Of a stretch of 64,000 nucleotides of DNA, positions 35,934 through 54,518 are shown piece after piece. The notes beneath the pieces were generated by a model. It had not been told where the DNA came from, made no database searches, and was given only the letters and a program-made list of their open reading frames with translations. A program made the position numbers and the translations under genes. The DNA is from Candidatus Aminicenantales bacterium (GTDB lineage: Bacteria; Acidobacteriota; Aminicenantia; Aminicenantales; Saccharicenantaceae). Each line of letters starts with the position of its first letter. Within the stretch, counting starts at the first letter, position 1. The stretch is from NCBI GenBank assembly GCA_049512315.1, contig JBEKXF010000002.1:132706-196705 (forward strand), written 5' to 3'.

Positions 35934-37229
35934 ATGCCGATCTTCAAGCTTCGGAAGAAAAAGCGCGTCTGTGTCATCGGCCTCGACGGCGTTCCGCACG
36001 GCATGATCCTCGACTTGGCCGAGAAGGGCGTCATGCCGGCCATGGCCCGGCTGGTCGACGCGGGGCATCTCCACAAAATGAAGGCCAGCCTGCCCGAGAT
36101 CTCGGCGGTCTCCTGGACCGATTTCATGACGGGCCGGGACTCCGGGACCCACGGCATCTTCGGGTTCACGGATTTCAAGCCGGATTCCTACGGGGTCCGT
36201 TACCCCAACTTCCAGGACCTGCGGACCCCGACCATCTGGGACACGCTCGGAGACAAGGGGAAAAAAAGCATCGTCATCAATCAGCCCTCCACGTACCCGG
36301 CGCGGCCCATCAACGGCGTCCTCATCTCCGGCTTCGTGGCCATCGAGCTGGCCAAGGCCGTCTACCCTCCCTCCATCCGGGCCGCTCTCGAGAGGATGGG
36401 TTACGAGGTCGACATCGACATCCTGAGATCGCGCGAGGACCCCGAGGTTCTCATGAGGGAGCTGGCGAGGACCCTGGCCGGCCAGGAGAAGGCCCTGGAT
36501 CTCTTCTGGGGAGAGCCCTGGGACCTCTTCGAGTTCGTCATCACCGGCACCGACAGACTTCACCACTTTCTCTGGACGGCCTACGAAGACAAATCGCATC
36601 CCTTCCACGGGCGCTTCCTGGATTATTATCGCGAGGCCGACAGGCTGATCGGAAAGATCGTCGCATCATTCCGTAAGGCCACGGGGAGCGAGGCCGGCCT
36701 GTTCCTTCTCTCCGACCACGGTTTCACGGGCATCGTTCAGGAGGTTTGCCTCAATGCCTGGCTCGAGCAGAACGGCTACCTGGCGTTCAAGGGGCCCGGA
36801 CCGAAAGGGCTGGAGGACATCACGGCCCCGAGCCGGGCCTTCGCCCTGGACCCCAACCGGATCTACCTGAACCTCAAGGGAAAGTTTCCGGCGGGCAACG
36901 TCGACCCCGGCGAAAGGGAGTCCTTCCGCGCGGAGATCGCCCGCAAGCTCGAAAAGCTCGAGTTCGAAGGCCGGAGGGTCGTCCGGAAAGTCTTTTTGTC
37001 CGAGGAGATCTATTCCGGCCCGCAGGCCGAGAAGGGGCCCGACCTCGTCGTCCTCGGCGAGCCGGGGTACGACATGAAGGGGTCGGTCAAGAAGAAGGAA
37101 GTTTTCAGCCGTTCTGACCTCCAGGGCATGCACACCTGGGACGACGCGTTTTTCTGGGCGGCCGCAGACCATGGCCCGGACCTGGCCATCAAAGATATCG
37201 CCAAGACGATCCTCGGAAGCTACGCATGA
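35934..37229 (+). CDS. Alkaline-phosphatase-superfamily type I phosphodiesterase / nucleotide pyrophosphatase family protein (cytoplasmic paralog)
   Basis: Motifs VCVIGLDGVP, …EISAVSWTDFMTG…, …LLSDHGF…; no signal peptide. Its stop overlaps the next start (ATGA). Confidence 0.8.
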   Translation: MPIFKLRKKKRVCVIGLDGVPHGMILDLAEKGVMPAMARLVDAGHLHKMKASLPEISAVSWTDFMTGRDSGTHGIFGFTDFKPDSYGVRYPNFQDLRTPTIWDTLGDKGKKSIVINQPSTYPARPINGVLISGFVAIELAKAVYPPSIRAALERMGYEVDIDILRSREDPEVLMRELARTLAGQEKALDLFWGEPWDLFEFVITGTDRLHHFLWTAYEDKSHPFHGRFLDYYREADRLIGKIVASFRKATGSEAGLFLLSDHGFTGIVQEVCLNAWLEQNGYLAFKGPGPKGLEDITAPSRAFALDPNRIYLNLKGKFPAGNVDPGERESFRAEIARKLEKLEFEGRRVVRKVFLSEEIYSGPQAEKGPDLVVLGEPGYDMKGSVKKKEVFSRSDLQGMHTWDDAFFWAAADHGPDLAIKDIAKTILGSYA

Positions 37230-39376
37230 GAAACGGGCGGCGAACGGCGGGACCCCTCATCGGCCTCATCGCCGTCTTCGCCCTCTCCCTTTCGGCCCCG
37301 CTCGAAGCTTACGTCGGGCCCGGCGCGGGTTTCGCTTTCCTCTCCTCTTTCTTCGTCCTCTTCCTGACTTTTTTCATGGCCGTGTTTTCGTTCCTGGCCT
37401 GGCCCTTCCGCTTCCTGTGGCGCGTCGTGCGCGGTCAGAGGGCTTATAAAGACAGCAAGATCAACAGGATGGTCATCCTCGGGCTGGACGGCATGGAGCC
37501 CACCCTGGCTGAAAAATTCATGGCCGAAGGGAAGCTCCCGAACCTGGCCCGGCTCAAGAAGGACGGGACCTACGCCCGGCTGAGGACGACGACGCCGGCC
37601 ATCTCGCCCGTGGCCTGGTCGTCGTTCATGACCGGGTCCGAGCCCTCCAAGCACAACATCTTCGACTTCCTGAGCCGCGACCCTCGGACCTACCTGCCCG
37701 ACCTTTCTTCGGCCCGGGTCGGCAAGCCCCGGCGCGTTCTCTCCCTCGGGAAATACAACATCCCGCTCGCCAAGCCCGAGATCCGCGGGCTCAGGAAAAG
37801 CGTCCCGTTCTGGAAGATCCTGGGCGACAAGGGCATTTTCAGCACCGTTCTCAGGGTCCCGATCACCTTCCCGCCGGAAAAGTTCAGGGGCCACCTTCTC
37901 TCCGGGATGTGCACTCCCGATATGAAGGGCAGCCAGGGGACGTTCTCGTTCTACACCACGGACGGGGAAAAGGTCCGGAAACACGAGGGCGGGGTCGCGA
38001 TCCCCGTCGAGATCGAGGGGAACAGGATCCGGACGCATCTTTCCGGTCCGGAAAACACGATGCTCAAGACTCCCACGGAGATCCGTCTGCCGCTGACCCT
38101 GACTCTCGACAGGGCCAAAGGCGGGGCCTGGATCGAAGTCGCCGGCGAAGAAAAATTCTTTCTCAAGGAAAAAACGTTCAGCCCCTGGGTCCCGGCCGTC
38201 TTCCGGCCCGGATTGGGGATCAAGGTCCGGTCCATCTGCCGGTTCTTCATCTCCGGGCTCGAGCCGCACTTCGAGATGTACGTGACGCCCCTCAACATCG
38301 ACCCCGAGAAGCCGGCCCTGCCGATCTCGCATCCCTTCATCTACTCGATTTATCTGGCCAGGCTCCTGGGACGCTTCATCACCCTGGGCGAGGCCAACGA
38401 CACCTGGGCCCTGAACGAGGGAATCCTCGGCGAGCAGCCCTTCCTCGACCTCACCTACTCCAACCACGCCGAGTGGGAAGCCATGCTCTCGAACGCCCTC
38501 GAAAAGACGCCCCGTGGGCTCGTGACCATCGTCTTCGAGACGACCGACAGCATCCAGCACATGTTCTTCCGCTATCTCGACAAGAGCCACCCGGCCCTCA
38601 AGAAGCCCGGCCAGAACGGGCTCGGCGCCCGGGTCATCGAGGACCTCTATGTCAGGATGGACGACCTCGTCGGGCGCGTCCGGAAATCCCTGGACGAGCG
38701 GAGCGTGCTCGTCATCATGTCAGACCACGGCTTCAAGTCCTTCCGGCGCGGGGTCAACCTCAACTCCTGGCTCCTCAAGAACGGCTACCTGCGTCTCAAG
38801 GACGGGAAGGCGGAGAGCGGCGAGTGGTTCAGGGACGTCGATTGGGAGAAAACTAGGGCCTATGCTCTCGGGCTCGGCGGGCTCTACCTCAACGTCCGCG
38901 GGCGGGAAGCCAAAGGGACCGTCGGCCCGGGCGGAGAAGCGAAGCGCCTCAAGGCCGAGCTCCTCCAGAAGCTCAAGGGCCTGAAAGACACGGCGACGGG
39001 GGCCATCGCCATCACGAATGTTTATGACACGGACGCGGTTTATTCGGGACCCTACAAGGACAACGCCCCGGACCTCATCATCGGCTACAACGAAGGCTTC
39101 CGGGCTTCGTGGGAAGGCGTCACGGGCATCGTCAACGACACGATCTTCGACGACAACGACAAGGCCTGGAGCGGTGACCACTGCATCGACCCGGCCCTCG
39201 TCCCCGGCGTCCTCTTCTCAAACCTCAAGCTCAAGGGCCAGAATCCGTCGATCATGGACATCGCCCCGACGGCCCTCGAGCTCTTCGGGCTCCGGCCGCC
39301 GGCCCACATGGACGGCCGCAGCTTGGTCGACGCCGCGAACCCGTTCGGAACGTCCGCAGGGGAAAAACCATCATGA
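37226..39376 (+). CDS. Alkaline-phosphatase-superfamily type I phosphodiesterase family protein (membrane-anchored paralog)
   Basis: Two N-terminal hydrophobic helices, then MVILGLDGMEP, …PAISPVAWSSFMTG…, …IMSDHGF…, …WSGDHC…; 716 aa. Overlaps both neighbours by 4 nt. Confidence 0.8.
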   Translation: MRNGRRTAGPLIGLIAVFALSLSAPLEAYVGPGAGFAFLSSFFVLFLTFFMAVFSFLAWPFRFLWRVVRGQRAYKDSKINRMVILGLDGMEPTLAEKFMAEGKLPNLARLKKDGTYARLRTTTPAISPVAWSSFMTGSEPSKHNIFDFLSRDPRTYLPDLSSARVGKPRRVLSLGKYNIPLAKPEIRGLRKSVPFWKILGDKGIFSTVLRVPITFPPEKFRGHLLSGMCTPDMKGSQGTFSFYTTDGEKVRKHEGGVAIPVEIEGNRIRTHLSGPENTMLKTPTEIRLPLTLTLDRAKGGAWIEVAGEEKFFLKEKTFSPWVPAVFRPGLGIKVRSICRFFISGLEPHFEMYVTPLNIDPEKPALPISHPFIYSIYLARLLGRFITLGEANDTWALNEGILGEQPFLDLTYSNHAEWEAMLSNALEKTPRGLVTIVFETTDSIQHMFFRYLDKSHPALKKPGQNGLGARVIEDLYVRMDDLVGRVRKSLDERSVLVIMSDHGFKSFRRGVNLNSWLLKNGYLRLKDGKAESGEWFRDVDWEKTRAYALGLGGLYLNVRGREAKGTVGPGGEAKRLKAELLQKLKGLKDTATGAIAITNVYDTDAVYSGPYKDNAPDLIIGYNEGFRASWEGVTGIVNDTIFDDNDKAWSGDHCIDPALVPGVLFSNLKLKGQNPSIMDIAPTALELFGLRPPAHMDGRSLVDAANPFGTSAGEKPS

Positions 39377-41394
39377 GCCGTCAAAGAAAACCGTCCACGC
39401 TGAGCCGCAGGGAATTCATGAAAGTGGGCGCGGCGGCCTCCGCCGCCCTGACGATCGGCGGCGGCAAAAACATCGTTCCCAAGATCTTCGGAAAAGCCCG
39501 GGCGACGAAAAAGGTCATCGTCATCGGGATGGACGGCCTGGATCACGGCCTGGTCAAGGGCTGGATAGAGGCCGGGAAGCTGCCGACCTTCGATAAGGTG
39601 CTCCGCGGGGGCGGCGATCTCCGGCCGCTCCGGTCGAGCATCCCGCCCCAGACCCCCGTGGCCTGGTCGAATTTCATCACCGGCACGGACCCGGGCGGCC
39701 ACGGCATTTTCGATTTCATCCGGCGCGACCCCCACAACCTCGACCCTTCGCACTTTCTCAATTTTTCCGCGACGGAAACCTCTTCCGCCAAGCACACGCT
39801 CCGGATCGGTCAGACCATCTTTCCCCTTTCGGGGGGCGAAGTCAGGAACCTTCGCCACGGAAAGGCCTTCTGGCAGGACCTTGAGGAGAACGGCATTCCC
39901 TCCACAGTCATCCGGATGCCTTCCAACTACCCGCCCGTCGCGACCCGCCAACGGACCCTCTCGGGCATGAACACTCCGGACCTCAAGGGAACCTACGGCA
40001 TCTTCAACTATTACACGAACGAAGCCAAGCAGATCACGGAAGAGGCGGGCGGCGGCGGCCGCGTCCACGACGTTTTTGTCGTCGGCAACCGGGTCGAGGC
40101 CAAACTGCCGGGCCCGGCGAACAGCTTCCGGGCCGGCAACCCCGAGACCGAGGTCGACTTCAAGGTGTTCGTCGACCCCGTCAACTCGGCGGCCAAGATC
40201 ATCATCCAGGACCAGCAGTTCATCCTCAAGGAAAAGGAATGGAGCGGCTGGAAGAGGGTCCGGTTCCACTTCCTGCCGACGCAGAGTGTCGGTGGGATCT
40301 GCCAATTCTATCTCAAGGAGATCCGGCCAAAGTTCAAGCTTTATATCAGCCCCATCCACATCGACCCCGCCGACCCGGCCCTGCCCATTTCCACTCCCGA
40401 CTCCTATGCCAGGGAGCTCGCCCGGCGCTTCGGCCCATTCTTCACCAAGGGCCTCCCCGCCGATACGGCCGCATTGGACAACGATGTCCTCGATGAGGCC
40501 GAATTCCTGACCCAGGACGACATGGTCCTTCGGGAGAGCATGGAACAGCTCGAGTTCGAGCTCGGGCGATTCGACGAAGGGCTCTTTTTCTATTACTTCT
40601 CGAGCACGGACCAGCGTCAGCACATGTTCTGGCGGCTCATCGATCCGGGCCACCCCGGCTACGACGCGAAGCTGGCCGGGAAATACGGCACGGCTATCGA
40701 GGAGATCTACAGCGAAATGGACAGGGTACTGGACAGGGTCCTCAGAAAGGTCGACCAGGATACCCTCCTCCTCGTCATGTCCGACCACGGCTTCAACCCC
40801 TTCCGCCGGGGCTTCAACCTCAACACTTGGCTGTATCAAAGCGGGTATCACCGCCTGATCAAGCCGTGGAAACAGGAAGAAACGCTCCTTTTCGACAACA
40901 CGGACTGGGCCAAGACTGCAGCCTTCGGGGCCGGGCTCAACGGCCTGTACATCAACGAGAAGGGCCGCGAGCGGGAAGGGATCGTCGCCGCTGGACCCGA
41001 AAAAGAGAACCTCGTCCAGGAGATCGCCCGGAAGCTCGAGGCACTGACCGACCCGAAGACGGGGGAACAGGCCATCCTCCATGCGTACGTCGCCAAGGAC
41101 GTCTACCATGGCCCCTATGTCGAGTTGGCCCCGGACATCGTCCTCGGTTTCAACCGCGGTTTCCGGATCTCCTGGCAGTCTCCCCTGGGGGGCTTCCCCA
41201 AGGACGTGTTCGCGGACAACTTCAAGAAGTGGAGCGGCGACCACATGACTTCCCCGGACGTCATCCCGGGCATCGTCGTGGCCAACCGGGCCATCCGGGC
41301 CGGGGAACCGGCGCTCTTCGACTTGACCGCGGCCATCCTCGACGTTTTCGGCATCGGGAAACCCAAGGAGATGATTGGAACGACCATTTTTTAA
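39373..41394 (+). CDS. Alkaline-phosphatase-superfamily type I phosphodiesterase family protein (TAT-exported paralog)
   Basis: Twin-arginine leader (MSRQRKPSTLSRREFMKVGAAASAALTIGGG), then VIVIGMDGLDHG, …PPQTPVAWSNFITG…, …VMSDHGF…, …WSGDHM… 673 aa. Confidence 0.8.
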   Translation: MSRQRKPSTLSRREFMKVGAAASAALTIGGGKNIVPKIFGKARATKKVIVIGMDGLDHGLVKGWIEAGKLPTFDKVLRGGGDLRPLRSSIPPQTPVAWSNFITGTDPGGHGIFDFIRRDPHNLDPSHFLNFSATETSSAKHTLRIGQTIFPLSGGEVRNLRHGKAFWQDLEENGIPSTVIRMPSNYPPVATRQRTLSGMNTPDLKGTYGIFNYYTNEAKQITEEAGGGGRVHDVFVVGNRVEAKLPGPANSFRAGNPETEVDFKVFVDPVNSAAKIIIQDQQFILKEKEWSGWKRVRFHFLPTQSVGGICQFYLKEIRPKFKLYISPIHIDPADPALPISTPDSYARELARRFGPFFTKGLPADTAALDNDVLDEAEFLTQDDMVLRESMEQLEFELGRFDEGLFFYYFSSTDQRQHMFWRLIDPGHPGYDAKLAGKYGTAIEEIYSEMDRVLDRVLRKVDQDTLLLVMSDHGFNPFRRGFNLNTWLYQSGYHRLIKPWKQEETLLFDNTDWAKTAAFGAGLNGLYINEKGREREGIVAAGPEKENLVQEIARKLEALTDPKTGEQAILHAYVAKDVYHGPYVELAPDIVLGFNRGFRISWQSPLGGFPKDVFADNFKKWSGDHMTSPDVIPGIVVANRAIRAGEPALFDLTAAILDVFGIGKPKEMIGTTIF

Positions 41395-46653: not shown

Positions 46654-47460
46654 CTATTCCTCGAAGAGATACTCCTTCGCCCGGAAAAGCCAGCAGGCCA
46701 ACGCCAGGAAGGCGGCCGCGATCACGACCAACGTGATAACCGCAACCACCGGCTCTGTCGGCTCCAGCCGGAAGAGAAGAATGGACAGGGGCCCCCCCGA
46801 GGGCCGCCGGGGCATGAGCGACTTCATGTAGTGGACGAGGGAGAATTTCTGCGTCGACCCCGGGAAATACTGGATGACGTTCTCCCAGCCGAACCCGAAC
46901 AGGAGCCCGACGAGGATCGCCCTCTTGAGGAACGTCCCGAGGAACGCGAAGAAGGCCGTGTAGGCGAGAATCCCGAGCCCCAATGACCCCTCATACTTCA
47001 TGAAGGTCAGATAGATGGCCGGATCCCGGAGGCGGTGGCCGTTCATGATGAAAAAGGACAGGGAGAGGCTCGTCGATACCATGATGAACATCAGGGTCAC
47101 GTAGGCCGCATATTTCCCGAGGAAGATCGCGGGCTTGGACAGGGGCCGGGTGATGAGATACGGCAGGGTCCGGCCCTCGGTCTCTTCCGCGACGATCGAC
47201 GTTCCGTAAAAGAGCGACAGGATGACAATGTCGAACGTCACGAAAAAGACGATCAGGATGTCGTTGAACACGGCTACGAGGTCTCCGGTCCGGCCGGCCA
47301 GGACGATCCTGAACATGACGGCGATCGCAACGGGGATGAGCCCGAGGAGGAAAAAGACCCGGCTCCGGCCGGTCCTTCTCCCCAGGAAAAAGAAGAAAAC
47401 GAAAACCCTCCTGAACGACATCCAGAAGGACGGGCCGCCCGCGTTCTCTTTCTGTTTCAT
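46654..47460 (-). CDS. ABC-2 family transporter permease
   Basis: 268 aa, 6 predicted TM helices. Start ATG at 47460, 1 nt after the upstream ATPase stop. Confidence 0.75.
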   Translation of the reverse strand: MKQKENAGGPSFWMSFRRVFVFFFFLGRRTGRSRVFFLLGLIPVAIAVMFRIVLAGRTGDLVAVFNDILIVFFVTFDIVILSLFYGTSIVAEETEGRTLPYLITRPLSKPAIFLGKYAAYVTLMFIMVSTSLSLSFFIMNGHRLRDPAIYLTFMKYEGSLGLGILAYTAFFAFLGTFLKRAILVGLLFGFGWENVIQYFPGSTQKFSLVHYMKSLMPRRPSGGPLSILLFRLEPTEPVVAVITLVVIAAAFLALACWLFRAKEYLFEE

Positions 47461-47461
47461 C

Positions 47462-48389
47462 TCATTTCACCACCAGATAATCGAAGACCGCCTGGAGATT
47501 GTCGTCCGGAGAGGAGATCTCCTCAACCTCGATCCCGCCCTCGACGACGGCTGTCTGCAGCCGGCTGAAGAACGCGTCCCGCTGATGGGTCTCGACGACG
47601 AGCGACCGTCCCTCCGGCCCGAACGACATCTTCAGGATGGACTTGTCGGGGACGAATCGCGCCGCCAGCGCCCGGGCATCGCTGCAGCGGATGGAGATCA
47701 TGTGGGGATAGGTCTCGATCAGGTCCCGGATGCTGTGGATGTCCCCCTGGGCCAGGATCTTTCCCTGGTGGATCATGATCACCCGGGAGGTCATGGCCTC
47801 GATCTCGGGCAGGACGTGGCTCGAGACGATAATCGTCTTGCCCGCGCTCTGGAAATCCTTGATGAGCCGGATGAGCCTTCTCTTCCCCAGCGGGTCGAGG
47901 CCGCTGAGCGGCTCGTCGAGGATGATGATCTCCGGGTCGTGGGCGACGGCCTGGGCGAACTTCACCCGCTGGCGCATGCCGCGGCTGTAGCTCCGGACCT
48001 TGCGGTCCTTATCCTTCGAAAGCTCGACGATGTCCAGGGCGCGGACGGCCCGCTCCGTGACCTCCTTCGCCGGGAACCCGTAAAGACGGAGAAGCCCCGT
48101 CAGGAACTCCCAGCCCGTGACGTCTTCGTAGAACGCGTCCTGTTCGGGGCAGAAACCTATCCCTCGGAAGAGGTGGAAATTGTTCCAGACGTCCCGGCCG
48201 CCGATTAAAACCCTCCCGATGTTCGGCCTCAGCTGGCCGGTGACGAGCTTCATGAAGGTCGATTTGCCGGCGCCGTTGGGCCCCAGGAGCCCGGTGATGC
48301 CTTTATCGATCTCCAGCGAGACGTCGCTCAGGCCAAGGACGTTCCCGTACCACTTCGAGAGGTTCTTCGTCTGGATGACGGCTGTCACC
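47462..48389 (-). CDS. ABC transporter ATP-binding protein
   Basis: Walker A GPNGAGKST, signature LSGGMRQR-like (YSRGMRQRV), Walker B IIILDEP. The start is probably GTG at 48389 (…VTAVIQTKNLSKWYG) with a GAGGTG RBS, overlapping the upstream permease stop (GTGA). Confidence 0.85.
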
Positions 48390-49257
48390 GGACCACCTCG
48401 ACGCCGCGGATCTTCCTGTGCAGGACGAGCGCGGACAGCCCACAGACGCCCCCCAGGACAAGGAAGGAAAAGACGACCGGGACCGCGTACGGCAGCTTCT
48501 GGGCGAAGACGAAAGCGCCCATCTGCTCGATGTTGGCCCGGATCGAAAAGAGGCACACGTAAGGGGTCCTGAAAGGACCCTGAAGCATGCCATAGAGGAT
48601 ATCCGAGAAGAGATAGATCATGAAAACGAGGATCATCACATATCGGCTGTTCTTGCTCAGGGCCGAGAGGAGGAGGGTGTAGAAGGCGAAAAATACGGCC
48701 AGCATCACCGAATAGCCGATGATCGACAGGACCAGCCAGGGACAGTCGAGGAAGAACTTGAAGCTCCCGTCGAAAATGAGCTTGAAGACGAGAACGAGCA
48801 GGCCGGGAACGAGGGTCACGATGAGGATGAAGAAAAAGATGACGGCCATTTTCCCCAACACGTAGTCCGTTTTCTTCAGCGGGCGCGAGAAGTAGATCTG
48901 GAGAGAGTTATGCCTGAGGTCGTCGGCGATGAGGCCTGAGCCCGCGAAGACGAGCATCGCGATCATGAGGAACAGGAACCCCGGGTTGGTGAAGAAGATC
49001 TTGAAGGATCCCGGCGTGATGGTGATGAACTTCTCCGAACCGCGGGCCCAGAGCTTGAAGTCCCCGAGGTGTTCGGAAATATAGATGATCGCCAGGAAGA
49101 CGACCGAGGGCAGGAAGGCTCCGGCAAAGAGGAACCGGAAGCCTTTCTTCTTGAAGGCCAGCAGGATGCCGGTCCGGGTGATCGGCCACCAGGGGAACCG
49201 GGCCTCGGCCAGCTGGCCGTCCCAGTGGTAATAACCCTTTTCCCGGACCGTGGCCAT
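48385..49257 (-). CDS. ABC-2 family transporter permease (second copy)
   Basis: Start revised to ATG 49257 (MATVREKGYYHWDG…). Six hydrophobic helices. Its ATG overlaps the stop of the upstream ATPase (ATGA). Confidence 0.75.
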   Translation of the reverse strand: MATVREKGYYHWDGQLAEARFPWWPITRTGILLAFKKKGFRFLFAGAFLPSVVFLAIIYISEHLGDFKLWARGSEKFITITPGSFKIFFTNPGFLFLMIAMLVFAGSGLIADDLRHNSLQIYFSRPLKKTDYVLGKMAVIFFFILIVTLVPGLLVLVFKLIFDGSFKFFLDCPWLVLSIIGYSVMLAVFFAFYTLLLSALSKNSRYVMILVFMIYLFSDILYGMLQGPFRTPYVCLFSIRANIEQMGAFVFAQKLPYAVPVVFSFLVLGGVCGLSALVLHRKIRGVEVVR

Positions 49258-50168
49258 CAATCCACCCCAACGAGCTCGGCGAAGACGTCTTCGAGCGAGG
49301 TCTGGCTCTTGATGAAGTAGCGGATCTGGGCGCCGGTCCTGGCCGCCGCCCGGAAGATCTCCATCCGGTCCCGGTCCGCCGGCATGTAGACTTTGATCAC
49401 CTTGTCCTCGGTCTCCTCCACGCGGCATTTCATGGATTCCAGGTCCTTGCGGAAGGCCTCTCCGTCGCCCTTGATCTTGAGCTCATAGAGGCTGACGTCG
49501 GTCGCCTTCAGGTCTTCGATCCGCCCCTCGGCGGCGAGCCTGCCCTTGTTCAGGATGACGACCGAAGAGCACAGCGTCTCGATGTCGGCCAGGATATGGG
49601 AGGAGAGTAGGACCCGGATGTCCTTGTGAGAAGCGACGTCCGCGATAAGCTCAAGGACTTCGTTCCGGCCCTGGGGGTCGAGGTTCGCCGTCGGCTCGTC
49701 GAGGAAGAGGAGCTTGGGGTCGTGGACGAGCGCCTGGGCCATCTTCAGCCGCTGCTTCATCCCGGCCGAATAGGTGTCGAGGAGCCGGTACCGGGCTTCC
49801 CCCAGGCCGACATAGAAGAGGACCTCGTGGGCTCGTTTCATGGCCTCCTCGCGAGGCATGCCCGACAACTCGCCGAAATAGGCGGTGAAGGTCACGGCGT
49901 CCATGCCGGCGATGAAGCAGTCGTTCTCGGGCATGTAGCCGACCGAGCGCCGGATCTTGGCCTGGTCCCGGCAGATGTCGTAGCCCAGGACCGTCCCCTC
50001 ACCGCTCGCGGGAACGAGGAACCCGAGCAGGATCCGGATGAGGGTGCTCTTGCCTGCTCCGTTCGGTCCCAGTAGGCCGACGGCCCCATCGCCCAGGCTG
50101 AGGCTCACGTCGTCCAGCGCCTTGATTTTCCCGTAGCTGAAACTCAGGTTCTTGACTTCGATGCTCAT
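49257..50168 (-). CDS. ABC transporter ATP-binding protein (second copy)
   Basis: Walker A GPNGAGKST, signature YSAGMKQRL, Walker B LLFLDEPT, H-loop SSHIL. 303 aa. Confidence 0.85.
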   Translation of the reverse strand: MSIEVKNLSFSYGKIKALDDVSLSLGDGAVGLLGPNGAGKSTLIRILLGFLVPASGEGTVLGYDICRDQAKIRRSVGYMPENDCFIAGMDAVTFTAYFGELSGMPREEAMKRAHEVLFYVGLGEARYRLLDTYSAGMKQRLKMAQALVHDPKLLFLDEPTANLDPQGRNEVLELIADVASHKDIRVLLSSHILADIETLCSSVVILNKGRLAAEGRIEDLKATDVSLYELKIKGDGEAFRKDLESMKCRVEETEDKVIKVYMPADRDRMEIFRAAARTGAQIRYFIKSQTSLEDVFAELVGVD

Positions 50169-50205: not shown

Positions 50206-51450
50206 TCAAGCAGAAAAGTTCCCCGGAACCTTGAGGCCTTCGCCATAGACGAGGGCCCGATAGGCCTTCTCGACCCGGTCCGGAGTATTGGCCCGGGCCA
50301 GGGGCCAGTACCGGCCCATGACGGTTGCGACCTCGCCTACGCCGAGTTTCCGGGCCATGTCCTCGACCTTCTCGATATAGACGGCGCCTGTCTCGGGCAT
50401 GTCGTTCCGGCGGCCGACGAACGAATAGATGAAAAGCCGCTTGACCCCGGCCTCCCGGGCCATCCGCATCAGGGCGAACAGGTGTCGGATCGTCCCGTGG
50501 GAGCTGTAAAAAGAGACGATCCCCATCAGATGGAGGGCCCGCCCGGAGGATCTGGCCTCGTTCATGGCCCAGAGGAGGGTCTCGTTTCGGAAAAAGCTGC
50601 CGTCCTCGATCGCCCGGTCGACGCGGACCCTGTCCAGGAAGACCCGCCGGCCGGCGCCGAGATGGAGATGTCCGGCCTCGGAGTTGCCGACGGTCCCGGG
50701 CGGCATTCCGACCGCCTCGCCCGAAGAATCCAGGACGGACCTCGGGTATCCCCGCCAGATCCGTTCGAAATTCTCCGGGCCGGCCTCCCGGATGAGGTTG
50801 CCGTAAGCTTCCTCCCTGTGCCCCCAGCCGTCAAGGATAAGGAGGAGCAGCTTGCGCCGCGGAGGGAAGCCTGCGGGCTTCCGCTCGATCAGGGAACGGC
50901 CCGTCATCTCGGCCGGGGCCGGGACGCCGGCGACGGTCCGGACGGCCTTGAGCACGGCTTCGCGGTCCTCGAGATGTCCGACCTCGTCCACGTTCGCGAG
51001 GTTGGCCACGATGGCCTGGGGAAAATCGTCTCCGAGCCGGGAGATGATCTCGCCGGCCAGCTCAGCGGCGCTCATCTCCGGCCGCTCCGCATATTGCTCG
51101 ACCCGCGGCGAGGGAACGACGACCCTTTCCTCCCCTAGAAAAATATCGCCCGTTTTGCCATTGAAAAAGAACCCTACGTGGGTCGCTTTTTCCGATTCCG
51201 CGATCTTGCGGACCCGGAAGCCGGCCGCACCGAGGACTTCCGTCAGCGTGTGACGGAGCTCTCGCTCCGGCGGGAAGGCCGCCCGGACCCGAAGCGACGC
51301 GGCGTACTCGATGAGCGTGACGAAATTTAAGTCCAACCGGCCGGCCACGTCCGCACGGACCATGGGTTCCAGCATCTCGTCTTCTTGTCCCGCATCGTAG
51401 GCCCTTCGGACGGCTTCGGAGAGGGAGCCGCCGCTCTGGTTGATGCTCAT
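50206..51450 (-). CDS. Circularly permuted, internally deleted homolog of cofactor-independent phosphoglycerate mutase (iPGM/GpmI)
   Basis: One continuous ORF. The N-terminal 200 aa match the iPGM C-terminal segment (…EKATHVGFFFNGKTG…SPRVEQYAERPEMSA…ANLANVDEVGH…AGVPAPAEMTGRSLIE, which is the iPGM C-terminal tail). It then runs straight into the iPGM N-terminus (…LLLLILDGWG…GNSEAGH…HLMGIVS…GRYWPLARANTPDRVEKAYRALVYGEG). The ADHGN / HT…PVP segment is absent. Start probably ATG 51450 (MSINQ…) with a GGGAGAAAGGG RBS. Confidence 0.7.
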   Translation of the reverse strand: MSINQSGGSLSEAVRRAYDAGQEDEMLEPMVRADVAGRLDLNFVTLIEYAASLRVRAAFPPERELRHTLTEVLGAAGFRVRKIAESEKATHVGFFFNGKTGDIFLGEERVVVPSPRVEQYAERPEMSAAELAGEIISRLGDDFPQAIVANLANVDEVGHLEDREAVLKAVRTVAGVPAPAEMTGRSLIERKPAGFPPRRKLLLLILDGWGHREEAYGNLIREAGPENFERIWRGYPRSVLDSSGEAVGMPPGTVGNSEAGHLHLGAGRRVFLDRVRVDRAIEDGSFFRNETLLWAMNEARSSGRALHLMGIVSFYSSHGTIRHLFALMRMAREAGVKRLFIYSFVGRRNDMPETGAVYIEKVEDMARKLGVGEVATVMGRYWPLARANTPDRVEKAYRALVYGEGLKVPGNFSA

Positions 51451-51478
51451 AGATTCCCTTTCTCCCGACGGACGGTCC

Positions 51479-52393
51479 CTATCTTTTTTCTCCGAGAGAG
51501 CGGTCTTCGCCCACCGGCAAAGCCAGCATGGCAAAGGGATCGACCCGGCTGTCGCCGACCCTCATGGACCAGTGGAGGTGGGGCCCCGTCGAACGGCCCG
51601 TGCTGCCGCATTTCCCGATGATCGCCCCTTTTTCGACCATGTCGCCCCGGTGAACGAGGAGCTTCGAAAGGTGGCAGTAGAAGCTGAATGTCCCGAGGCC
51701 GTGGTCGATGAGGACCGAGTTGCCCGAAAGATAGAGAGGGCTCGCCAGGACCACCCGGCCCCGGTTGGCCGCCCGGATGGGCTCCCCCCACGGCACCTGG
51801 AGGTCCACTCCGCCGTGGACGGAGCTGAGGACGTTGTTGTTCAGGCGCCTTTGCCCGAAGTTCGGCCAGGCTTTGGCGGGGTGCGGGGCCACGAAGGCGC
51901 CGTCACCCAGCCACTCCGGATCGCTCAAAGTATAGACCAGGCTGACGATCTCGGCTTCCCGTTTGATCCTCTCGGCCGCCGACCTCGTCGGGGTCACGAA
52001 TTCCCTGGCGACCCAGATCTTTTGCGAGGGGAAGGTCTTCCCGGATATGGTGACTTCCCTGTGTAGATCCTCGAGCGTCCCATCTCTCTTCTCGGCCAGG
52101 ATGTCCAGCGGGTAGCGGCCCGGCTTGACGTCGAGGTCGATGCCGAGGAAGGCCAGCGCTTCCCGGCCCGACGCGTCCGTCCTCAAAACGACGTTTTCCC
52201 CCATGAAGCGCAGGCTGAGCGCAAGGACGTCGCGGCTTTTCAGGACGAAGAGAACGGGCTCGCCCGGCTGGAACGACCGGCAGGCCATCTCGACCGTGAC
52301 CCCGGAAGGGGTCCGCAGGGACTCCCGCGTCAGGGCCGCCAGCCCGAAGGGCGCGGCGAGGAGCAGCAGGGCCGCGATGATCCGCCTGGTCAA
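51479..52393 (-). CDS. M23 family metallopeptidase (LytM domain), secreted
   Basis: Signal peptide (MTRRIIAALLLLAAPFGLAA). LytM motifs HGGVDLQ, …VLIDHG…, …GSTGRSTGPHLHWSM… The start appears to be TTG at 52393 overlapping the upstream TGA stop (TTGA). Confidence 0.8.
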   Translation of the reverse strand: MTRRIIAALLLLAAPFGLAALTRESLRTPSGVTVEMACRSFQPGEPVLFVLKSRDVLALSLRFMGENVVLRTDASGREALAFLGIDLDVKPGRYPLDILAEKRDGTLEDLHREVTISGKTFPSQKIWVAREFVTPTRSAAERIKREAEIVSLVYTLSDPEWLGDGAFVAPHPAKAWPNFGQRRLNNNVLSSVHGGVDLQVPWGEPIRAANRGRVVLASPLYLSGNSVLIDHGLGTFSFYCHLSKLLVHRGDMVEKGAIIGKCGSTGRSTGPHLHWSMRVGDSRVDPFAMLALPVGEDRSLGEKR

Positions 52394-54317: not shown

Positions 54318-54518
54318 ATGGCTGATAAAAAAGCGGACCCGAAGCCCGAAACCCAGGCGTCAGCCGCTCCCGAATCGGGCCCGAAGAGAAAGAAGATCAA
54401 CCGGTTCGGCCTGGCGGAGATCGAAGCCCGCCTGGCGGAGTGCCAAGAAAAACAGGGCGGCCTGGCCTCCAAGTACGCCCGGCAGCTCCTGGCCCGGAAA
54501 AAGTCGCTGACCTCCTAG
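54318..54518 (+). CDS. Small basic hypothetical protein (66 aa)
   Basis: AAAGGA RBS before ATG 54318. Sequence MADKKADPKPETQASAAPESGPKRKKINRFGLAEIEARLAECQEKQGGLASKYARQLLARKKSLTS. Followed by a GC-rich palindromic stretch. Confidence 0.5.
   Translation: MADKKADPKPETQASAAPESGPKRKKINRFGLAEIEARLAECQEKQGGLASKYARQLLARKKSLTS

Follow-up and report, generated by a model that had tools for sequence, protein, structure and literature searches.

An open reading frame in the genome of a Candidatus Aminicenantales bacterium carries the pieces of the phosphoglycerate mutase iPGM in an unusual order, and some of these pieces are missing. The question is whether this order is real, whether it belongs to this gene alone or to a family of genes, and whether the product could still be an enzyme. 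iPGM has a central place in glycolysis and is a target for drugs; for catalysis, its two domains must close around two hinges. The features of the gene are collected in Table 1, with positions counted in the window, by which we mean the whole stretch of 64,000 nucleotides that was analysed. The GC content of the gene is ordinary relative to the rest of the window, and the frame contains no frameshift and no internal stop. The ATG start (MSINQ...) is common to all orthologs; a longer reading of 442 aa could begin at a TTG at position 51534, but it would run into the upstream M23 gene, and none of the orthologs uses it. The encoded protein differs by 1 aa from the JGI protein P0001 (414 aa, contig Ga0480572_0001249).

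Table 1 Positions of the permuted iPGM gene, its parts, and further genes in the window
Feature	Position	Strand	Details and basis
Whole ORF, permuted iPGM homolog with two in-frame deletions	50206..51450	-	414 codons and stop; ATG start
Purine-rich Shine-Dalgarno-like stretch GGGAGAAAGGGA	51455..51466	-	4 bases 5' of the ATG; read from the sequence
Stop codon of the upstream M23 peptidase gene	51479-51481		
Residues 1-38, new N-terminus and start of the second half of the transferase domain	51337..51450	-	iPGM about 218-244 (aligned residues 12-38); ortholog P0002 against 1EJJ and family alignment
Deletion 1 junction	51340..51341	-	120 bp (40 codons) gone; CCGG microhomology (4-bp direct repeat)
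Residues 39-173, end of the transferase domain, second hinge and phosphatase part	50932..51336	-	iPGM about 288-421; 1EJJ match and alignments
Deletion 2 junction	50933..50934	-	234 bp (78 codons) gone; 12-bp direct repeat
Residues 174-188, old iPGM C-terminal tail AGVPAPAEMTGRSLI	50887..50931	-	iPGM 493-509; third 1EJJ match
Residues 189-198 (ERKPAGFPPR), linker from old C-terminus to old N-terminus	50857..50886	-	Unaligned between two 1EJJ matches
Residues 199-405, old phosphatase N-terminus, first hinge and first half of the transferase domain	50236..50856	-	iPGM 4-210; 1EJJ match and invariant columns
D12 of DGWG	50830-50832	-	
S62 of GNSEAGH	50680-50682	-	
Codon TAT, Tyr342 (H460Y)	50425..50427	-	His in 119/119 family members; equals His147 of B. 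stearothermophilus iPGM
ABC ATPase and ABC-2 permease pair, twice in tandem	46654-50168	-	
Two adjacent alkaline-phosphatase-superfamily genes	37226-39376 and 39373-41394	+	716 and 673 aa; 4-base overlap
66-aa ORF MADKKADPKPETQ...	54318-54518	+	Between rpsO and amidohydrolase gene

The permuted order was confirmed by comparison with a known structure and with domain profiles. When the protein was searched with HMMER against PDB, the best chain was 1EJJ, the iPGM of B. stearothermophilus (E = 2e-85), and it matched in three non-colinear pieces: residues 199-405 correspond to iPGM 4-210 (212 bits), residues 41-173 to iPGM 290-421, and residues 172-188 to iPGM 493-509. The overall order of the window protein is iPGM 218-244, 288-421, 493-509, a 10-residue linker, and 4-210, and the colinear order of iPGM (phosphatase N-piece, transferase insert, phosphatase C-piece) is absent. 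The profiles upheld this order, as the C-terminal end matches positions 1-129 of the Pfam profile iPGM_N and the N-terminal half matches positions 62-175 of Metalloenzyme, while TIGR01307 positions 2-207 fall in the C-terminal half of the protein and positions about 214-504 in the N-terminal half. The TIGR01307 equivalog score of the window protein was 297.8 bits, which is below the curated cut-off of 330.65 bits. The sequence-only reading had proposed a true circular permutation in which the old C-terminus abuts the old N-terminus and both ends of the ORF fall within the transferase domain, and both points were borne out by the alignments to 1EJJ, with a short linker between the old termini. 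Its order of the pieces was also right, but its residue ranges were off by about 20, since the N-terminal piece begins near iPGM 218 and not 238, and the C-terminal end, although it does lie in the transferase domain, is near iPGM 210-219 and not 240.

Whereas canonical iPGM has its transferase domain inserted in the phosphatase domain, the permuted protein has a contiguous phosphatase domain inserted in a split transferase domain. The permuted chain starts in the middle of the transferase domain (about iPGM residue 215), runs through the second hinge into the contiguous phosphatase domain, in which the old termini are tied by about 10 residues, and then passes the first hinge to end as the first half of the transferase domain. 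With the new break placed within the transferase domain, and with both former ends of the chain in the phosphatase domain, neither hinge between the domains is lost. The equivalents of K336, D403, and H407 (AESEK, NVDEVGH) are carried by residues 39-173, and those of H123, R153, R185, and R191 by residues 199-405, together with the two residues located in Table 1. The protein has an alkaline-phosphatase-like core in common with ApgM (TIGR00306), DeoB, and other PF01676 members, with weak local similarity of 30-45 bits over the NxDxxGH...DHG region; however, the window gene does not belong to the ApgM or DeoB family, as it scores far below their cut-offs and their cap domains differ.

The permutation is an old and conserved architecture. 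Among 5.8 billion proteins searched, the best match was the window gene's own cluster (P0001), and it was followed only by proteins mostly of 520-570 aa. DGWG and GNSEAGH come after NxDxxGH and ADHG in all of the best 120 clusters (120/120), and the other closest clusters, 119 out of 119, are full-length and permuted at the same point as the window protein, so that the orthologs with the same order that the earlier reading proposed to look for do exist. The closest relative, P0002 (87% identity by BLASTP, 92% over shared alignment columns), is like the window protein in its first and last residues and has two additional blocks; its residues 12-306 correspond to iPGM 218-509 and its residues 317-523 to iPGM 4-210, again with a 10-residue linker between them. 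This linker was found in all family members and is variable in sequence in the family alignment. When one genome per GTDB species was scanned, the family signature peptides were found at 432 loci, mostly in Aminicenantes, and the best 80 of these 432 loci were all full length. The great majority of these 80 are in Aminicenantes, among them Ca. Aminicenans sakinawicola and the five closed chromosomes OY970122.1, OY970261.1, OY969586.1, OY969696.1, and OY969762.1. The window protein has the clade motifs SxYSSHGT, GRR[GN][ED], and VGNSEAGHL as well as the same permutation point and linker, but with 414 aa it falls short of the clade's full length of about 520-550 aa with all catalytic blocks. The GGVHSH and DGRD motifs had been described as altered in the ORF, and they do differ; however, SSHGT and GRRND are family-wide traits in which the equivalents of His123 and Arg153 are kept and only Asp154 is replaced, and they are therefore no sign of decay.

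More distant members widen the family beyond Aminicenantes. In an exhaustive phmmer search over 1.84 billion cluster representatives, canonical iPGMs were about 35-43% identical and matched in two pieces, whereas about fourteen further representatives matched colinearly with the permuted query and are therefore permuted too. Those with names include Limnochordia (254 contigs), Ca. Desulfofervidus auxilii, and a 'Proteobacteria' MAG. In a neighbor-joining tree built after the canonical order had been restored computationally, 29 of 30 bootstraps supported the core permuted clade. P0125, P0127, and P0138, which are permuted and keep canonical motifs, fell outside it and nearer the canonical iPGMs, so that the permuted forms may not all have a single origin; these three may represent a basal branch, or their chain may have been permuted independently at this site. 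They show about 50% identity to canonical enzymes, and P0138 retains the canonical SDAGVHSH. Several other members are unusual in their own right. P0207 is a predicted protein of 5027 aa with a colinear, hence permuted, iPGM module at residues 3857-4374, and it may be a true giant protein of many domains or a fusion made in gene calling, for example by read-through under an alternative genetic code. The Aminicenantes MAG PFL55 (JALHUR01) has one permuted iPGM gene on each of two contigs (L016 and L045); the two genes differ (62% and 59% identity to P0002) and are either paralogs or the result of a mixed bin. Genes with 57-77% identity to the permuted iPGM of Aminicenantes are also found in dozens of MAGs titled 'uncultured Eubacteriales bacterium' (L013, L014, L020, and many others) and in single MAGs titled 'Terriglobales' and 'Desulfaltia'; these titles are probably taxonomic mislabels.

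As for the origin of the permutation, the sequence-only reading had assumed a local duplication followed by truncation that was peculiar to this ORF. A tandem duplication in the window genome was rejected as the origin, because the same architecture is found in hundreds of genomes. Permutation by duplication proceeds by tandem duplication and trimming of both ends, and leaves old termini joined by a linker and new termini on the surface of a domain. The permuted iPGM family resembles other naturally permuted enzymes in both respects, with a short linker between the old termini and new termini at the surface of a domain. Six unusually long homologs were examined for a tandem iPGM-iPGM fusion intermediate, but each is a single canonical iPGM, and four of them either carry a fused HAD, RsfS, or rubrerythrin domain or are part of a larger protein; thus, we infer the duplication origin rather than having seen its intermediate. 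The earlier statement that no permuted iPGM family had been described agrees with our literature search, in which nothing relevant turned up in 7.7 million PMC full texts and bioRxiv, the coverage of which is incomplete. The family is real and apparently undescribed, and its members bear mixed database labels (iPGM, 'alkaline phosphatase family', 'sulfatase-like', or 'hypothetical').

The full-length members are well conserved in the residues on which the mutase reaction depends. For substrate binding, the residues of the B. stearothermophilus enzyme, which we take to be H123, R153, D154, R185, R191, R261, R264, and K336, were mapped through 1EJJ, and their invariance was read from 115 full-length family sequences. 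Seven of the eight (H123, R153, R185, R191, R261, R264, and K336) are invariant in the 115 sequences, and Asp154, replaced by Gly or Asn, is the sole substitution among the listed residues, so that the family is invariant at 14 of the 15 residues for catalysis and binding. The two metal sites of iPGM are formed by D12, S62, D444, and H445 in one and by D403, H407, and H462 in the other (PMC5382265). All seven of these ligands, including the Ser nucleophile S62, are invariant across the 115 full-length members. Full-length permuted relatives also pass TIGR01307, with 432, 387, and 592 bits against 330.65. An AF2 model of a full-length member, computed with the family alignment, reached a pLDDT of 90.2 and a pTM of 0.76, and Foldseek placed it on the closed, substrate-bound B. 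stearothermophilus iPGM over 299 columns at 2.3 A; as Foldseek is sequential, this superposition follows only one of the two permuted segments.

Compared with canonical GpmI/iPGM (TIGR01307; 1EJJ, 1O98, 5KGN), the permuted proteins are alike in both domains, with about 40% identity over nearly the whole length. The full-length members share with it the two metal sites, the Ser, the Arg/Lys/His cage, the two hinges, and the predicted closed fold, and differ in that Asp154 is not conserved. Because the ligands, the Ser, and seven of the eight substrate residues are kept and the model is confident, the full-length permuted members are probably working mutases with the standard phosphoserine mechanism, and with both hinges and the Arg/Lys cage also retained, they most likely act as ordinary iPGMs. 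In such a cycle, the domains would close, the phosphate would be passed to the Ser, the glycerate would reorient, and the phosphate would be transferred back.

The genomic neighborhood identifies the window gene as a positional ortholog of this family. The order Amidohydro_3, M23 peptidase, window gene, ABC ATPase, and ABC-2 permease is the same at L002, L003, L004, L005, and L006, and of the 66 Aminicenantes loci with enough flank (L010-L089), 65 have the ABC ATPase and ABC-2 permease pair downstream. Close relatives have the M23 gene upstream, and over all loci it is so placed in only 22 of 68. An unrelated permuted member (L091) also adjoins an ABC-2 pair. Elsewhere, the gene of the canonical-like permuted member P0127 (L090, 8001-9626) overlaps the pgi stop by 4 bases, and the Limnochordia permuted gene adjoins a phosphohexomutase gene. 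In a Ca. Desulfofervidus-type locus (L092, 839-8044), the permuted iPGM gene overlaps the end of a gene for a 2401-aa PPDK_N (PEP-utilising) protein, which also shows faint AAA/zeta-toxin-like matches. The genomic context is mild support for a PGM function of the permuted family. A tblastn search for a second iPGM within the 64-kb window returned only weak matches, which lie in two PF01663-type phosphodiesterase genes at 37226-41394 and are to the iPGM tail motif. The 716-aa product of these two genes has a hydrophobic N-terminal stretch, and the 673-aa product has a twin-arginine-like SRREFMKVGAAASA start and a precomputed PF01663 Phosphodiest match in L001. The 66-aa ORF of Table 1 has counterparts of 66-68 aa, without a Pfam match, at the same place in L001, L003, L004, L005, and L006.

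In contrast to canonical iPGM, the window copy is without residues about 245-287 and about 422-492. Both gaps were defined by DNA alignment with the ortholog locus L002 and by blastn breakpoints. The first deletion takes out the FYDVRGERE block, which holds the equivalents of R261 and R264, and the second, flanked in the ortholog by TCGACGGCGTCC and TCGTCGGCGTCC, takes out the ADHG and GHTKNPVPF blocks with the equivalents of D444, H445, and H462. The sequence-only reading had found one internal deletion and missed the 40-codon loss of the two arginines; its missing block of about 75 residues is the 78-codon deletion, but the loss is not confined to 'Mn1' ligands and hits both metal sites. The DGWG, GNSEAGH/Ser62, and NVDEVGH motifs that it listed as retained are indeed there, so that the window copy has D12, S62, D403, and H407 and lacks D444, H445, and H462 among the metal ligands, and among the substrate residues lacks R261 and R264 and has Asn at 154. 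Besides the replacement of an invariant His by Tyr342 (Table 1), the window lineage has P145L at a position that is Pro in 106 of 119 relatives. The AF2 model of the window protein had a pLDDT of 78.1, falling below 50 near the deletion-2 junction and the Ser-nucleophile loop (residues 241-262), while residues 280-400, the transferase half, were around 90. According to this picture, two slippage-type deletions at short direct repeats removed both FxxRxxR arginines and three of the seven metal ligands, an invariant His changed to Tyr in the same lineage, and the product is most likely unable to bind both metals or the substrate. The ORF would still be open because both deletions are multiples of three and the damage is recent.

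Selection on the window copy does not by itself reveal this damage. The dN/dS against an intact ortholog was 0.14, with neighboring genes at 0.08-0.27, and when changes were polarised with two outgroups, nonsynonymous changes numbered 11 and synonymous changes 30 on the window branch, and 13 and 21, respectively, on its sister (Fisher p = 0.33). No relaxation of selection was evident from either the pairwise or the branch-polarised counts, and the elevated dN/dS that had been named beforehand as a sign of a pseudogene was not seen. The damage is therefore either recent or tolerated. By a rough Poisson estimate, a neutral period since the deletions would cover at most about 12% of the window branch, which fits the 0.1% by which the two assemblies that carry the allele differ. 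The branch counts fit a very recent inactivation and equally fit continued selection on a shortened protein; we favor recent death, since the known chemistry cannot proceed without the residues that were lost. We therefore consider it likely that the window gene, a damaged positional ortholog of the conserved permuted iPGM, is catalytically dead in this copy, as judged from its residues and the model, and the 'in-frame decaying pseudo-enzyme' proposed earlier is the best reading of this copy, with its catalytic blocks deleted.

Two other accounts of the window copy have to be set against this. The data are of metagenome type and short GC-rich repeats lie at the deletion sites, so that the deletions, or even the permutation itself, might be artefacts of assembly; however, both deletions are found in the independently assembled JGI contig L001 (99.90% identity in an ungapped alignment of 20,127 bp with 20 mismatches), the 4- and 12-bp repeats are far below assembler k-mers, and the permutation junction occurs in hundreds of genomes, including closed chromosomes. 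An assembly error is therefore very unlikely, to the point of being scarcely credible, and the chimera that had been named as a possible refutation does not fit the recurrence of both junctions; the allele predates the split of the two strains. Exact matches to the deletion junction and to a conserved 28-mer were both absent from a metagenome contig collection, which evidently does not include the known JGI contigs either. The other account, that the shortened protein is still functional in a non-catalytic or altered role, such as binding of phosphoglycerate or a partner, or as a reduced phosphatase with a single metal site, draws on the intact reading frame, start codon, and Shine-Dalgarno-like site, on two independent deletions that are both in frame (a chance of about 1 in 9), on the unrelaxed branch counts, on the presence of the allele in two diverged assemblies, and on the well-modelled transferase half. 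Nevertheless, three metal ligands and both FxxRxxR arginines are lost, the invariant His is replaced, and the remaining phosphatase core is poorly modelled. Both deletions are specific to the window lineage, the doubly deleted architecture being absent elsewhere among about 120 clusters and the best 80 of the 432 loci, and since the two assemblies differ by only 0.1%, the allele has persisted for only a short time. We regard a retained function as rather unlikely.

A different doubt concerns the clade as a whole, which may not be a PGM but a paralogous phosphomutase or phosphatase that acts on another substrate and is sometimes dispensable, so that a dead allele could survive. The clade-wide remodelling of the His123 loop (SxYSSHGT) and of the DGRD motif (GRRGE), with Asp154 changed to Gly or Asn, points in this direction, as do the non-glycolytic neighbors in Aminicenantes (the downstream ABC-2 transporter), the position of the Limnochordia gene beside a phosphohexomutase gene and not in a gap-pgk-tpi-eno cluster, and the naming of many members as 'hypothetical protein' by NCBI. 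This is outweighed by the 40-43% identity to canonical iPGMs, by the near-complete invariance of the catalytic and binding residues, and by scores that exceed the TIGR01307 equivalog cut-off; the closest canonical iPGM clusters are Verrucomicrobiae by name, and the fact that no Aminicenantes canonical iPGM is among them is weak evidence in the same direction. We consider a non-PGM clade unlikely, though it deserves to be weighed. A bolder version, in which the swapped topology and the remodelled Asp154 and His123 loops would make the permuted clade a distinct enzyme with another substrate, and the doubly deleted protein would also be a selected minimal derivative, seems to us improbable. The reading that we prefer is that of a family of probable mutases of which the window copy is a recently damaged member.

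The conserved permutation, in which the inserted domain is swapped, is a natural experiment on how the connectivity of a chain relates to folding and domain closure. It also bears on annotation, as permuted proteins match profiles in two pieces and are named inconsistently. If the window gene were the only PGM of the cell, its loss should be costly, which counts against the view that the copy is dead; the deleted allele thus raises the question of whether the enzyme is dispensable or backed up by another PGM, and this bears on metabolic reconstructions of uncultured Aminicenantes. A whole bacterial class would be using a non-standard form of a core enzyme.
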